Below, in pieces: positions 462 to 5,151 of a stretch of 5,151 bases of DNA. The stretch covers positions 1-5,151 of the forward strand of contig CH709168.1 in the NCBI GenBank assembly GCA_000004695.1, given 5' to 3'. Numbering within the stretch: the first letter of the stretch is position 1; every line of letters starts with the position of its first letter. Both the position numbers and the translations under genes were made by a program. This DNA comes from Dictyostelium discoideum. Lineage: Eukaryota. The notes under the pieces were generated by a model that saw only the letters and a list, made by a program, of their open reading frames with translations, searched no databases and had not been told where the DNA came from.

Positions 462-706
462 TAAAACATGAAATATTATTAAATTATTTTGACAAATATG
501 TTGGTGACCAATACCATTTTCTTTCAAATAAATTATTTTACATATGATAGTATTCTAAATATAGTTATACCAATTCAAATTGATGATACCAATTACCTTA
601 TAATTTACAAATACCATGATATATAATTATGACTGGTATTCACAAGTTGCTCCCTTCATCTGCAAAGTATAAAGAGATATAGGATGCAAATCAAGTATTC
701 AAGCAC

Positions 707-1307
707 TTGTCTACTATCAAAGTTATCCCCAAGTACATATACACTGCGCTATTAAACAAGACACTTGTACTCTTGAAAATGTTTGGTTTATCAAGATCAT
801 CAGACTTAGTGAAGTGGTCGTTCAAAGGTCTCATTATTACTACTGACTCAATCAAAGGTCCAGTTATCAATGCTAAAGAACAAAGAAGTGGTGTTGTTTC
901 AATCTTAGAATTAACATCGTTAGATGATACTAACTCTCAAGTATGTCCTGTTCGACCTTGCAACATACCTTAGAGCCTCTAAAGGAAGAAGAAAGCCCCA
1001 TTGGGGTGACTCTGTCTTTATTAAGAATGAGGGTGAACCGCTCCAAGTTAATGATATAAATTCAATTGTATTATCAACACTCTCAAGCTCCGGTATTGAT
1101 ACTAGAAAGTTCAAATCTCACTCTATCCGTTCCGCTATGGCTTCTCTGCTGTTGTTCAATAACGTTCCGTTCCATGTTGTCAAGAAGATGGGTCGCTGGA
1201 AATCAAACGATACTGTAGATACCTTCTACGATAAAAGAATCATTGGTGAAAAATCTGGTGGTATTTTCATTGATACTGTCGTTCAAATAAATAAATGTTA
1301 TTCATAA
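707..1307 (+). pseudogene. Tyrosine recombinase catalytic domain, FLP- or Crypton-like, interrupted by a +1 frameshift near 950-960 and lacking a proper ATG start.
   Basis: Translation gives GLSRSSDLVKWSFKG (box I Arg, compare FLP GRFSDIKNVDPKSFK), then SQVCPVR, and after the frame change LATYLRASKGRRKP...KSHSIRSAMASLLL (H-x-x-R), GRWKS (the G-x-W) and the nucleophile Tyr in DTFYDKR. The R...H..R...W...Y spacing of ~150 aa matches FLP R191-Y343. Frame 2 (707-973) and frame 0 (924-1307) overlap, so one base is missing or added near 950-960. The only possible starts are TTG at 707 or an ATG at 779, just before the catalytic Arg. Confidence 0.6.
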
Positions 1308-1321
1308 TATATATATATATT
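1308..1321. repeat. (TA)n dinucleotide microsatellite immediately after the recombinase stop codon.
   Basis: A tatatatatatat run read directly from the sequence. Confidence 0.8.
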
Positions 1322-1357
1322 TAATATAAAATATAATTTAATAAATTAAATTTTTAA

Positions 1358-1680
1358 TTCTCATTTAATACCAATTCACGTAGCCAACCTTCTCATAATG
1401 ACTCTGACACTGAGAATGAACAAAGTGATGATGAATCAAGTAACAATGTCGATGTTCCAACCGATTATCAATTATCCGATACCTTACTTGGTCAGTACAA
1501 ACATATGGTAAACAATCAAGGTTTACTCGTCAAAGAAGAATGTATCCTCAAGAAAGATGAGATATCCGAATTGAATAAAATATTCAATTTTCCATCTAAC
1601 ATCCAAGTGAATGTCGCTCCATTCGGTACACCTGAAGGTATTACTGTATCATTCAACGTCAAGAACAATGATACTGACTA
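1358..1680 (+). CDS. Acidic S/D/E-rich ORF fragment of 107 codons, open from the preceding stop, with no in-frame ATG until codon ~50. It is a possible C-terminal exon or a pseudogene.
   Basis: Open frame reading ...HNDSDTENEQSDDESSNNVDVPTDYQLSDTLLGQYKHMVNNQGLLVKEECILKKDEISELNKIFNFPSNIQVNVAPFGTPEGITVSFNVKNNDTD*. Codon use is coherent and yeast-like (TTA, GGT, CCA, GTC). A 37-codon ATG-initiated ORF lies in another frame at 1397-1510. Confidence 0.3.
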
Positions 1681-1735
1681 GTTATTAGTCAATGACAAGT
1701 GGTTGGTGAAAGGTTTACAGGTGGAGTTGTATTGA

Positions 1736-1777
1736 CCACCATGACCTTAGTCAAGTAGCGCATTGTGTCACGTAATT
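1736..1777. repeat. Left arm of a 42-bp inverted repeat. The inner 30 bp (1748-1777) are perfect.
   Basis: tagtcaagtagcgcattgtgtcacgtaatt is the exact reverse complement of 1979-2008. The match extends to 40/42 identity over 1736-1777 versus 1979-2020. Confidence 0.9.
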
Positions 1778-1978
1778 GGGATAAGATCAACAGCATTAAC
1801 AGGCTGGCCTGCCTTTGATGAGGCGTTAGGTAACGAGTACACATTTTCAGAAGTGATGGTCAGGTTCATACTACGCTCCGTTCGCGTTTGAACTTCAGGC
1901 TTAACGCAGAAGGTATATATAACGATTCTATTCATTTGAACTACGGTATTGTTGATCTTAATCGTGGGCGTGTATCCG

Positions 1979-2020
1979 AATTACGTGACACAATGCGCTA
2001 CTTGACTAGGGTCATGTTGG
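1979..2020. repeat. Right arm of the 42-bp inverted repeat. It encloses a 201-bp core (1778-1978).
   Basis: aattacgtgacacaatgcgctacttgacta is the reverse complement of the left arm. The whole element spans 1736-2020 (285 bp). Confidence 0.9.
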
Positions 2021-2030
2021 CTTAATTGAA

Positions 2031-2059
2031 AGAGGGGATGTACTACATCCTCTTTTTTT
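2031..2059 (+). terminator. Rho-independent terminator-like hairpin followed by a T7 run.
   Basis: agaggggatg tacta catcctct followed by ttttttt. The stem is ~10 bp with one G bulge or G-U pair. No A-tract precedes it, so it is unidirectional on the + strand. Confidence 0.5.
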
Positions 2060-2095
2060 GATCTATTGATATGTAAAGTTTTACACAGTACCGGA

Positions 2096-2101
2096 TATAA
2101 T
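2096..2101 (+). promoter_or_regulatory. Perfect sigma70 -10 hexamer TATAAT. The -35 is weak: GTAAAG at 17 bp, or TTTACA at only 10 bp spacing.
   Basis: Hexamer read from the sequence. No convincing -35 is present, so this is speculative. Confidence 0.2.
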
Positions 2102-2136
2102 GTGTAGGGATAACCTCTCTGCATGCAAGTACTCCA

Positions 2137-2559
2137 AAAGATTAAAATTATTATGACGAAGATTAACACCCTCATTAAGGGTATGGCTTGACCAGAACAC
2201 ATGTTATCCCCTTATTTTTCTTTTAAGTCAATGGAGGAATGTCATGCCATGTAAATCTTTTGATTTTGGTAACTGTACAAAACGCACTGCAGCGGCCGAT
2301 AAAGCCAAGCGAGATGCTAATCCAATTCTTCGTACTCAGTTACTGAAGAAGATTCGTTAATGACTGATCGGCAAGCCAGCATCTCCAGAATGGTAGAACT
2401 GGATCTCTTGGTAGATCAGCATTAAAAGCCAAAAGACACAACTTAACCCAGAACATATTGCCATGATAATCGAACTGCTTGGTGAGGGTAATTGCAGAAA
2501 TGCTTAATATCGATAGATCAAAAATATTCCGTTATCGTAAAGAGAACGGTATCGTATAG
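2137..2559 (+). pseudogene. Decayed serine recombinase of the DNA invertase / resolvase family (Hin/Gin/Cin-like). It carries several frameshifts and stops, and the N-terminal catalytic Ser region is missing.
   Basis: Frame 0, 2157-2360: TRLTPSLRVWLDQNTCYPLIFLLSQWRNVMPCKSFDFGNCTKRTAAADKAKRD..., compare Gin [36 protein letters not shown]. Frame 1: NGRTGSLGRSALKAKRHNLTQ, compare NKGRIGGRPPKLTKAE. Frames 2 and 1: IIELLGEGNC / RVIAEMLNIDRSKIFRYRKENGIV*, the typical C-terminal HTH ending ...IA..L.IsRSTiYRY. The VW motif at 2181 to the C-terminal stop at 2559 is 378 nt; the equivalent distance in Gin is ~375 nt. The only intact piece is a 38-codon ORF at 2244-2360 with a GGAGG Shine-Dalgarno site at 2233-2237. 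Confidence 0.5.
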
Positions 2560-2562
2560 CTC

Positions 2563-2595
2563 AAAAAGACCAGCCAATAACACTGGTCTTTTTTG
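2563..2595 (+). terminator. Intrinsic terminator immediately after the invertase-remnant stop codon.
   Basis: aaaAGACCAG ccaataaca CTGGTCTttttt. A 7-9 bp stem, 9-nt loop and T5 tail, preceded by an A-run, so it could act on both strands. Confidence 0.6.
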
Positions 2596-2754
2596 TAATC
2601 ACCAAACAATGATATCCGTTGCAGTTTTCCTGGTAGGAACTCTAAGACAACCTAAGTTCAATCAGTAGGGGTTAACCAGACCTTTTGGTGAAGTGTTAGT
2701 ATTGACTGTAATAGCTATAGAGCTACGTGAAATTCGAATGGGTGTCACCCAATT

Positions 2755-2844
2755 GGAGAATTGTCCGAGTGGTTCAAGGTAACGGTCTTGAAAACCGTCG
2801 GGCGGGAAACCGCTCCTAGAGTTCGAATCTCTAATTCTCTGCCA
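2755..2844 (+). tRNA. tRNA-Ser, anticodon UGA, type II with a long variable arm and genomically encoded CCA.
   Basis: Acceptor GGAGAAT/ATTCTCT, then G and CCA. Anticodon stem ACGGT/ACCGT with loop CTTGAAA. Perfect T-arm TAGAG-TTCGAAT-CTCTA. GGTCTTGAAAACCG and GAGTTCGAATCTCT are near-identical to E. coli serT. Positions 1-72 form a G-U pair and 10-25 a U-U pair, both slightly unusual. Confidence 0.85.
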
Positions 2845-2975
2845 ATTAAGATCTAAAGAAATCGCTATACGGTCACGAACGGGGATCGATAAAAGCCTAA
2901 GAGTGAAAGCCTCTACCGTTCTCTCAAACAGGGTTCAGCACTCTGTCTATAACGTATAAAGGAAAAGGAAAGATA

Positions 2976-3263
2976 ATGGCTACTAAGATTTCAATTACCC
3001 GTGCATTGGCCACAGTTAAATCCATGTCCAACGGTCTGATGCTTATTTCACTAACTCGCGGTACTGATGAGTTCGCCCAAGAAGCTGGTTTCAATGATTC
3101 CGTTGGGGCGGTTTCTGATGCGATCAAAGAAAACTACCAGGGTTTACAAGATATCATTCGTGTGCATGAAGATATCCTTGCTAAAGTGATCTTGTCCAAC
3201 GATACTACGCTTATTACCGTAGCTGGCAAAGAATACTGTGTGGTGTATTCTTTGCCACGATAG
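2976..3263 (+). CDS. Hypothetical protein, 95 aa.
   Basis: ATG preceded by AAGGAAAAGGAAAG (Shine-Dalgarno-like). E. coli-like codon usage (CGT, GGT, CTG, AAA, GAA). No recognisable motif. Confidence 0.5.
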   Translation: MATKISITRALATVKSMSNGLMLISLTRGTDEFAQEAGFNDSVGAVSDAIKENYQGLQDIIRVHEDILAKVILSNDTTLITVAGKEYCVVYSLPR

Positions 3264-3270
3264 GGAATCG

Positions 3271-3543
3271 CTAATCTGGGAATTCATCACGACGCATTAC
3301 ATCAGAAGAGACGTTCTGAACAAACACGGTAATCTGTGCAATTAAGTAATTGCTTACAACAGCGAGTTCGTCTTTGGCAGCTTTCAGACCAAAGATAACC
3401 GACTCACCCGTAATACATTCTGCATCAGCAAAAGTCAATGCGGTAGCAATTATTTGTACGGCAGATGCACCATTATACTCCTCAAGTGACGAAACCACAG
3501 AGGCAGGGTTAACTTCAAGTTGGCCAATTTCAATAGCTGCCAT
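3271..3543 (-). CDS. Hypothetical protein, 90 aa, convergent with the previous ORF across a 7-bp gap.
   Basis: Coherent codon usage. The overlapping + strand ORF (3350-3631) is S/A/T-rich and low-complexity, so the minus frame is preferred. The ribosome binding site is weak. Confidence 0.4.
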   Translation of the reverse strand: MAAIEIGQLEVNPASVVSSLEEYNGASAVQIIATALTFADAECITGESVIFGLKAAKDELAVVSNYLIAQITVFVQNVSSDVMRRDEFPD

Positions 3544-3656
3544 AACTCTAGCCTATAACTCTTGTGCTTTTGTTTCGTTCATGGATGTACGCACAAAAAG
3601 CAAATTTAAATTTAATTTAAAGCGAATTTAAAGTCCTGTACAAAAGCAATTTTTAA

Positions 3657-3734
3657 GGTAATTTTAAAGGTAATTTTTAAGGTTACTTTAAAACCACCTT
3701 ATAAATTACCTTTATAATTACCTTAGAAATTAAC
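3657..3734. repeat. Array of a 12-bp motif, three direct copies followed by three inverted copies. Together with flanking AAAGCAATT half-sites it forms a ~110-bp imperfect palindrome (~3640-3752).
   Basis: Direct copies: GGTAATTTTAAA, GGTAATTTTTAA, GGTTACTTTAAA. Centre: aCCACC. Inverted copies: TTATAAATTACC, TTTATAATTACC, TTAGAAATTAAC. The latter are reverse complements of the same motif. Confidence 0.75.
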
Positions 3735-3828
3735 TTTTTAATTGCTTTAAAAGCGAGGTCCTGAGTTCGAAGCCGTTATTTAACGGATAAATTTTATAAA
3801 AATTTTTTTTGAATTTTTTGAAAATTTA

Positions 3829-3870
3829 CCAAAAGGGTAGTCTCATCAATCAAAGGGTAGTCTCATCAAC
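3829..3870. repeat. Two tandem 20-21 bp direct repeats (iteron-like).
   Basis: caAAAGGGTAGTCTCATCAAt immediately followed by cAAAGGGTAGTCTCATCAAc. A 7-bp inverted repeat TCATCAA...TTGATGA follows at 3864-3897. Confidence 0.8.
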
Positions 3871-3998
3871 CATTACACCATTTGATTGCTTTGATGATAA
3901 TTTAAAAATGATAGAATATTTTATCCCCATTTTTTTGATCTAAAATTAGATGTTTTTTATTAAAAACCTTAAATTTATATTTAAAGGAAATTTTAATT

Positions 3999-4042
3999 CA
4001 CTTTAAATCTACTTTAAATCAACTTTAAATCCTCTTTAAAAT
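3999..4042. repeat. Four tandem 10-12 bp units with a CTTTAAAT core, phased at the helical repeat.
   Basis: cactttaaat, ctactttaaat, caactttaaat, cctctttaaaat. Similar TATCTTAAAA(A)T units occur at 4075-4097. Confidence 0.7.
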
Positions 4043-4056
4043 TATTTTAAAATAAT
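4041..4056. repeat. 16-bp perfect palindrome ATTATTTTAAAATAAT.
   Basis: The sequence equals its own reverse complement. Confidence 0.85.
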
Positions 4057-4162
4057 TTTTAAAGGCATTTTTAAATATCTTAAAATTATCTTAAAAATTA
4101 CCTTGAAAATGAATTTTTTAAACCCGGCTTTAAATTCAATTTAATTCCAATTTAAATCAACT

Positions 4163-4184
4163 TTGCTTTAAATTTGCTTTAAAT
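4163..4184. repeat. Tandem duplication of the 11-mer TTGCTTTAAAT.
   Basis: ttgctttaaat followed directly by ttgctttaaat. Confidence 0.8.
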
Positions 4185-4249
4185 GTGGATTTTTCTGTGC
4201 TGCACATGCACATAATGCATTAGGCGAGAAACGCGATATTGTCAAAGCT

Positions 4250-4453
4250 TTGAAAGCCAACTACGAATCGATATCTCGTCACAACGGTAACTCCAATTTT
4301 GACCAGCGTGAAAATACCGCGCGCACCGAAGCATTCAACGGTACTAAGAAAGCCGATGAAGCTTCCATTGCTGTGTTCGTTAATCCAGTTATCGAACGTT
4401 ATCAGCCAGGCGTGCTGTATCCGCTGGAGATCAGCAAAGTAATCAAGCAGTAG
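4250..4453 (+). CDS. Hypothetical protein, TTG start per the ORF track. The frame is open from 4172 and resumes after the TAG at 4451 for 29 more codons, to 4543.
   Basis: E. coli-like codon usage (CTG, CGT, CCG, GGT). No ATG anywhere in frame from 4172. The TAG at 4451-4453 is followed in frame by EKEILDFEANIDYALTESTKIEIVDGVVV*. Confidence 0.4.
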   Translation: MKANYESISRHNGNSNFDQRENTARTEAFNGTKKADEASIAVFVNPVIERYQPGVLYPLEISKVIKQ

Positions 4454-4776
4454 GAAAAAGAGATTCTGGATTTCGAAGCCAACATTGATTACGCGTTAAC
4501 TGAATCTACCAAAATCGAAATTGTAGATGGTGTGGTAGTTTAATTAAATTAAAAAGCTTGTCTTCGTTTGACGAATAGTCGAACACCGCCCTTGGGAGGT
4601 TAAACCACCAGCTCACTATATACACGCTGTGGGTCGATGGTTCGAGTCATTTCTGTGGAAACACAGTAGCTCGGTCGGTTATAGCAATAGTCAAAACATT
4701 AAATAAATAACACCTAGCATGATCCAAATTACAGAATGTGGTATTCGATATCACCACGTCCGTAAGATTAGTATAT

Positions 4777-4807
4777 AGGATGGTTTTACCCCTCCTGGTT
4801 TTATTTT
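4777..4807 (+). terminator. Weak terminator-like hairpin followed by a T-rich tail.
   Basis: AGGATGG ttttacc CCTCCT ggttttatttt. The stem is imperfect and not associated with any upstream ORF. Confidence 0.2.
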
Positions 4808-5057
4808 GAGATGAATGTCCGTCATTAGGCACCCTTAATAGCGGAAGGCGGTGAATTGGAGACTTGGGACGTGGCTGAAAGTATGCCAGCAAATAACCGA
4901 CGCTTACACTTTGGTGTAAGTAAACCACAATCAACCGCGTAGCATCTAAAAATAAAAGAACAATGACAGAAGCACTTCCGATATTACGTGGTTGGGTGTT
5001 GTAGAAGTCTGACGGTCAACCCCGCCATCGGTCACCTATTAAGAGGATTAGTTTACC

Positions 5058-5151
5058 ATGGAAATTCCAAAAAGCTATGTGGCAACTGATTTTAAATATG
5101 TTAACAACCAACCTTATGTGCGTGGTCAGCGTGTATTAATAATAATGCCTA
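5058..5151 (+). CDS. 5' part of an ORF running off the window (MEIPKSYVATDFKYVNNQPYVRGQRVLIIMP...).
   Basis: ATG preceded by AAGAGGA ~11 nt upstream. The frame is open to the window end. Confidence 0.4.
   Translation, partial: MEIPKSYVATDFKYVNNQPYVRGQRVLIIMP

Follow-up and report, generated by a model that had tools for sequence, protein, structure and literature searches.

The window is an unplaced Dictyostelium discoideum AX4 contig of 5151 bp. At positions 625-1361 it carries a dead fragment of the retrotransposon DIRS-1, a reading to which we assign a probability of about 95%. The fragment consists of the last ~212 codons of the tyrosine recombinase (YR) ORF, which encode the catalytic domain, followed by ~55 bp that probably belong to the element's internal complementary region (ICR). 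Known since 1985, DIRS-1 fills the Dictyostelium centromeres with hundreds of broken copies. A known element is here found where it would be expected, and the fossil itself is not novel. Its left neighbour is the decayed end of a different repeated ORF and its right neighbour a fragment of DIRS-1 ORF1 (Table 1), a nested and fragmented arrangement that is typical of DIRS-rich centromeric DNA.

Table 1 Features of the 5151-bp window and the basis of each assignment.
Feature	Position	Strand	Basis
Decayed C-terminal section of a repeated Dictyostelium ORF of ~813 aa	1..624	+	Match to DDB_G0294308 and to the tail of P0130
5'-truncated DIRS-1 YR ORF remnant, ~codons 143-354 of the intact 354-aa YR	625..1307	+	DNA identity; PF00589
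AT-rich DIRS-1 ICR-like sequence, directly after the YR stop	1308..1361	+	53/58 matches
DIRS-1 ORF1 (gag-like) fragment, ~codons 51-158	1358..1683	+	92-96% DNA identity to an internal part of DIRS-1 ORF1; same strand as the YR
Phage-derived island, 41-42% G+C, with inserted Dictyostelium repeats	1684..5151	+	tRNA, PHROG 1491, terminators
Annotated gene model DDB_G0294310 (P0018), join(779..892, 924..1280, 1415..1681)	779..1681	+	P0018 mapped onto the window

Positions 625-1352 are 88.4-91.6% identical over ~730 bp to at least eight DIRS-1 copies in the loci L001 and L003-L005. Both this stretch and the ORF1 piece surpass the usual criterion for membership of a transposable-element family (nucleotide identity of 80% or more along 80 bp or more). 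In the coordinates of the element, the window joins ~3735-4455 (the C-terminal two-thirds of the YR and what is probably the start of the ICR) to 633-958 (ORF1). Homology to the YR starts abruptly at 625 in alignments to two DIRS-1 copies of another D. discoideum assembly. A first-pass annotation made from the letters of the window had placed a recombinase at 462-1307; the YR part is real, but positions 462-624 belong to another element. The name DIRS-1 derives from the architecture, abundance, species and literature description of the element rather than from a named database match, the homologues themselves all being annotated 'hypothetical protein'.

Protein searches gave the same picture. 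The frameshift-corrected translation of 686-1307 contains a tyrosine-recombinase domain (Pfam PF00589, Phage_integrase) with an E value of 4.8e-9 and a score of 36.7 bits, above the Pfam gathering cut-off of 27.1. When 5.8 billion proteins were searched with this translation, 130 matches were obtained, all from Dictyostelium, with amino acid identities of up to 92% and E values reaching 1e-114; several of these homologues are fused to reverse transcriptase (RT) or RNase H domains. All six catalytic codons are kept (R 794-796, K 875-877, H 1119-1121, R 1128-1130, W 1197-1199 and Y 1227-1229) and the ORF ends with TAA at 1305-1307. As in DIRS-1, the enzyme is a YR with R-K-H-R-(H/W)-Y residues instead of a DDE integrase. 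The motifs picked out in the first-pass annotation (LSRSSDLVKWSFK, KSHSIRS, GRWKS and TFYDKR) are all present in the window translation, and its view of the ORF as a eukaryotic-type tyrosine recombinase pseudogene was borne out. DIRS, one of the families it had listed for comparison, is the answer.

Beyond the YR stop codon, the AT-rich stretch 1308-1361 matches at 53 of 58 positions both the inverted terminal repeat, at its outer end, and the reverse complement of the ICR; as these two are near-identical by design, the stretch fits either. The reference for this comparison was an apparently full-length DIRS-1 (L004 2708-7570) of 4863 bp, which has 346-nt inverted terminal repeats of 94% complementarity and a 60-nt internal region that is 100% complementary to the repeat end. 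Its ORF1 encodes a gag-like protein of 335 aa and its second ORF a protein of 632 aa that contains RVT_1, RNase H (RT_RNaseH) and Dam methyltransferase domains. In the overlapping third ORF the last ~350 residues comprise a SAM-like core-binding domain plus PF00589. The gag-like ORF1 and the RT/RNase H/methyltransferase ORF that mark DIRS-1 are thus both found in this full-length relative. In the window no terminal repeats and no RT were found, and its DIRS-1 content consists of fragments, not of an element.

The full-length copy sits, within a block paralogous to the window, at the equivalent of window positions ~1287-1348, in the ICR-like tail of an older DIRS-1 fragment. Its insertion illustrates how one DIRS element enters another. 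In intact DIRS-1 the YR is translated from a full-length mRNA driven by the left terminal repeat, cDNA is made by reverse transcription with the ICR restoring the missing repeat ends, and the YR recombines the intermediate into the genome, preferably into existing DIRS-1 copies, a preference that leads to the clusters that serve as centromeres (PMC7192593, PMC5633606). Nested fragments such as those of the window arise because the YR prefers other DIRS-1 copies as targets. The present-day role of the fragment would probably be limited to that of bulk centromeric repeat DNA and, possibly, of a template or target of DIRS-1 small RNAs.

To the right of the DIRS-1 pieces the character of the DNA changes. 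The first-pass annotation remarked that the recombinase fossil lies ~0.4 kb from bacterial-type features, and this is true, as phage-type DNA starts at 1684. Such a junction could be the product of a chimeric clone, misassembly or contamination, a suspicion fed by the contig being short, unplaced and repeat-rich and by the bacterial signals on its right-hand side (a tRNA with an encoded CCA, intrinsic terminators and Shine-Dalgarno-like sites). We consider an artefact very unlikely. The whole window is collinear, with 99.77% identity, to L003 7026-12185 at the end of a 4.89-Mb contig of the independent assembly GCA_054883475.1, from which it differs by three substitutions and one 9-bp indel. 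The L004 block is a paralogue of 94-96% identity that has the junctions at 625, 1358 and 1683 in common with the window, and beyond these it contains the full-length DIRS-1 and one more copy of an AT-rich element described below. A third, differently decayed copy is present in L005, and AX4 has an annotated homologue, DDB_G0267286, on a contig of 4.92 Mb that agrees in length with chromosome 1. Given these copies in L003, L004 and L005 together with DDB_G0267286, the junction of DIRS-1 and phage-type DNA is real genome structure and not contamination.

The same comparisons date the lesions of the YR. Two disabling mutations are present. The first, overlooked by the first-pass annotation, is a nonsense codon, TAG, at 680-682 on the plus strand, where intact DIRS-1 copies have TGG (Trp). 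The second is a 2-bp deletion after 954 (953..956, plus strand), where the window reads GTTCG--ACC and intact copies read GTTCGCCACC; this deletion moves the YR reading frame from 2 to 0, and the frameshift reported at ~950-960 is therefore real. As the identical TAG and the identical deletion recur in the independent assembly (L003), neither is a sequencing error. As the L004 paralogue lacks both, having TGG at the nonsense site and the intact-copy sequence at the deletion site, the two arose after duplication of the block. Stops remain in the YR frame when alternative genetic codes are used. It had also been stated that no ATG precedes the catalytic Arg. There are ATG codons at 629 and 779, the latter five codons ahead of that Arg, although the true start of the ORF is indeed missing. 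The copy is inert as a gene: it lacks a start codon, the N-terminal SAM-like core-binding domain, the RT/RNase H/methyltransferase ORF, the terminal repeats and a promoter of its own. In the L004 paralogue the frame is open from an ATG at the junction (P0004, 210 aa), and given this open frame, fragments related to the window YR might be translated.

The annotated gene model DDB_G0294310 is a prediction artefact. Its three exons include a 31-nt 'intron' that bypasses the frameshift, and the model fuses two YR frames to the ORF1 fragment. It deserves a pseudogene or transposon-fragment flag.

A rather different origin had been proposed for the ORF, namely that it descends from an FLP-type (2-micron-plasmid-like) gene, or from a Crypton, and has its own TATA and CCAAT promoter. 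The promoter part of this proposal did not survive inspection of the motifs. TATAAAG does occur at 668-674 on the plus strand, but it lies within the YR codons Tyr-Lys-Glu; most intact YR copies read TATCAAG (Tyr-Gln-Glu) at this site, and P0004 and P0048 also have KYKEIW. Instead of the five ACCAAT copies claimed for ~505-620, the plus strand has three, at 507, 569 and 588, and the motif is not enriched, the whole window containing 6 versus 4.3 expected, a number reached by 53 of 200 shuffles. In the decayed tail of the upstream ORF the three copies read as the codons D-Q-Y, I-P-I and D-T-N. They belong to ...VGDQYHF... and ...VIPIQIDDTNY..., stretches that are conserved in the intact ~813-aa protein. 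The 11-mer ATACCAATTCA is found twice as stated, at 567 and at 1368, but the repeat is unremarkable: the second occurrence consists of the codons N-T-N-S of the ORF1 fragment, and positions 1-1700 contain five repeated 11-mers, where shuffles have 2.2 on average and as many as 10. Since shuffled sequences yield such repeats, one shared 11-mer is without weight.

The supposed eukaryote-style upstream elements are hence pieces of coding remnants. Core-promoter motifs should be upstream, non-coding and enriched, and the TATAAAG and ACCAAT sequences do not have these properties. Neither they nor the shared 11-mer are promoter evidence. In intact DIRS-1, transcription proceeds from the terminal repeats (PMC5633606, PMC4482531). 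The lesson is that in an AT-rich genome, a promoter called from motifs can turn out to be leftover codons.

The upstream ORF is likewise foreign to the recombinase. The first-pass annotation had suggested comparing ORF 3-461 with recombinase N-terminal domains; it is instead the C-terminal part of the repeated ~813-aa ORF. It is identical, letter for letter, to DDB_G0294308 of AX4 and clusters with proteins of 737-852 aa, such as DDB_G0267352, and the tail of P0130 (...DKYVGDQFNKYHFLSNEL...VIPIQIDDTNYLIIYKCHD) aligns to frames 2 and 0 of the window at 465-622. Searches of Pfam and PHROG gave no match to the ~813-aa family. It is probably a DNA-transposon ORF of the amoeba; the transposases of Dictyostelium DNA transposons reportedly resemble nothing known (PMC5633606).

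The recombinase itself has some resemblance to FLP. Like FLP and Cre, this eukaryotic YR has Trp at the His-II position, and its box I, R-S-S-D-L, loosely recalls the FLP sequence R-F-S-D-I. The R-x-S-D/E-L box, however, is general to tyrosine recombinases and not specific to FLP. The yeast-like codon usage noted in the first-pass annotation was looked at through G+C content, which is 36.5% in the YR fragment. No FLP chain was matched at E values up to 10 when all PDB chains, FLP included, were searched with phmmer and with the family profile, and the best PDB match was a weak one to a bacterial integrase (3NKH, E 0.09-0.4). PDB sequence searches being too weak for classification, we turned to structure prediction and to fold searches. 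The AlphaFold2 model of an intact copy (P0003) had a mean pLDDT of 72 and a pTM of 0.65, with most of the catalytic domain at 80-94. By this predicted model the fold of the intact YR is closest to those of Xer/Cre recombinases, and FLP ranked 16th. An exhaustive HMMER search with P0003 returned 2527 relatives, the distant ones of which include RT-RNaseH-YR and Dam-YR polyproteins, the DIRS architecture. Across the distant DIRS-type YRs, five catalytic residues (R, K, H, W and Y) do not vary at all, and the second R is almost invariant.

These data argue that the enzyme would work like a simple Xer/Cre-type recombinase and yet is a member of the YRs of DIRS retrotransposons, not of the FLP family. 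The first-pass annotation had named best hits to bacterial XerC/D or phage integrases as the outcome that would speak against its FLP/Crypton assignment; this outcome was obtained only at the level of fold, and the close relatives are all eukaryotic. The YR lies in chromosomal transposon debris, and no inverted, FRT-bearing repeats of the kind found in an FLP plasmid flank its ORF. The literature treats the YRs of Cryptons and of DIRS elements as relatives. However, the fragment is 88-91% identical to copies residing in a complete, RT-bearing element with inverted repeats, features that Cryptons do not have, and the Crypton assignment fails because the parent element carries an RT. With the TATAAAG and ACCAAT sequences in coding remnants and unenriched, we regard an FLP-type or Crypton origin as extremely unlikely and retain the assignment to DIRS-1.

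Although the YR fossil is of little interest in itself, the adjacent phage-derived island is of more, and merits a separate look. The tRNA-Ser(UGA) gene at 2755-2844 is 90 nt long with an encoded CCA and is of bacterial/phage type, its nearest matches being phage tRNA-Ser genes. Intrinsic terminators, each a hairpin plus a U-tract, are found at 2028-2059 and 2563-2594 (z-scores of -4.2 and -4.3). One island gene gives a full-length match to PHROG 1491 (E 1.3e-35) and has 45% identity to gp199 of the Erwinia jumbo phage Ea35-70. Its two parts, at 2976-3254 and 4211-4543, are in different frames; an insert of ~956 bp (3255-4210), which includes an AT-rich element at 3597-4202, interrupts the gene between residue 100 and residue 103. 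The gene also has an in-frame TAG at 4451-4453; the L005 copy has Leu at this codon and is without the insertion. The AX4 model DDB_G0294314 and ACTFIT_003263 'splice' over the insertion. DDB_G0294310 and DDB_G0294314 are both prediction artefacts that splice over lesions and insertions.

The island is not confined to the window. It is found, within DIRS-rich DNA, at L003 8709-12330, L004 ~7880-12450 and L005 ~9950-10900, with at least three diverged copies in one assembly. In addition, there is DDB_G0267286 on the 4.92-Mb AX4 contig, a homologue whose neighbours are YR and transposon ORFs. In L004 it extends ~600 bp beyond the end of the window, with a P-loop ORF (phrog_2586 match) followed by another DIRS-1. 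Direct searches for a phage source gave little: megablast of the whole window against phage records found no match, distant blastn of 1685-3600 matched only tRNA-Ser genes, and scans of IMG/VR found neither a close relative of the phage-like protein nor an exact 26-mer.

Several further structures were observed within the island. The AT-rich element is ~600 bp long with 22% G+C and has imperfect inverted repeats at its termini (3595-3629 and 4159-4193). It also contains TTTAAA-type repeats with a period of 11-12 bp and, at 3832-3871, a tandem 20-mer. Further copies occur in L003, L004 and L005, one of them reversed at the equivalent of window position 2408/2409. It looks like a non-autonomous DNA transposon. 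Weak, sub-threshold mir-548-like Rfam matches to it are owing to its palindromic nature. The segment 3255-3596 of the insert has 42% G+C and a 90-aa minus-strand ORF (3271-3543) that gave no Pfam, PHROG or phage tblastn match; the L004 paralogue has 28 nt in place of this segment. Just inside the island, an inverted repeat at 1736-1783 and 1973-2020, with 48-nt arms that are 94% complementary and 189 nt apart, is followed by the terminator hairpin at 2028-2059.

With phage-derived DNA beginning only ~0.4 kb away, the YR could be thought to be the integrase of the island, that is, a bacterial or phage enzyme, and its family fold, closest to Xer/Cre/lambda-type recombinases, as well as the weak match to the bacterial integrase 3NKH, would fit. 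However, the DIRS-1 ORF1 fragment stands between the two, and the G+C content is 36.5% for the YR fragment versus 41-42% for the island (and 22% for 1-624). Moreover, the close relatives of the YR are all Dictyostelium DIRS-1, its distant relatives are eukaryotic YRs linked to RT, and its sequence recurs many times without neighbouring phage DNA. We give an island integrase virtually no chance and keep the YR with DIRS-1.

As to the island, we lean toward a real transfer of tailed-phage DNA to the nuclear genome of this bacterivorous amoeba, which would have been captured in the DIRS-1 centromeric arrays, multiplied with them and later invaded by transposons. The tailed-phage DNA in this reading, which extends to the paralogues of 1684-5151, is represented by the tRNA-Ser with its encoded CCA, the PHROG 1491 virion-type gene, the P-loop gene and the terminators. 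A study of the Dictyostelium centromeres described unexplained tRNA genes, mostly pseudogenes, and 'non-transposon multiplied regions', and mentions no phage origin (PMC2665215). The island may explain both these odd tRNA genes and the multiplied regions, and the tRNA-Ser(UGA) gene may correspond to the centromeric tRNA genes of Glockner and Heidel 2009. In the literature searched, we found no description of the island as phage-derived. Should it prove to be unreported, the island would give a clear example of phage DNA that has become fixed and has been amplified within a centromere of a eukaryote, and it could act as a dated marker for the duplication of DIRS repeat arrays.

Set beside known systems, the YR shares superfamily and chemistry with FLP of the yeast 2-micron plasmid, which has Trp at the equivalent position (W330). 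Cryptons are, like DIRS-1, eukaryotic mobile elements that encode a YR, but they are without the RT, RNase H, methyltransferase, gag-like ORF and inverted LTR/ICR system, all of which the parent element of the fragment has. Simple recombinases of the Cre/XerA/XerH/XerD type (PF00589 plus an N-terminal SAM-like core-binding domain) have 12-17% sequence identity to the YR; they are bacterial, archaeal or phage enzymes that act at defined sites. The DIRS-1 YR, by contrast, comes from a retroelement of eukaryotes for which no target sequence is defined. Compared to intact DIRS-1, the window copy retains ~720 of ~4860 bp plus a separate 326-bp ORF1 piece, and it has lost the RT/RNase H/methyltransferase ORF, the terminal repeats and the N-terminal YR domain and gained a nonsense codon and a 2-bp deletion. 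What it retains is found in the same species and is the same YR ORF with R-K-H-R-W-Y and an AT-rich ICR-like sequence after the stop, beside an ORF1 fragment. Further DIRS-1 pieces surround it, in agreement with published descriptions of the centromeric clusters.
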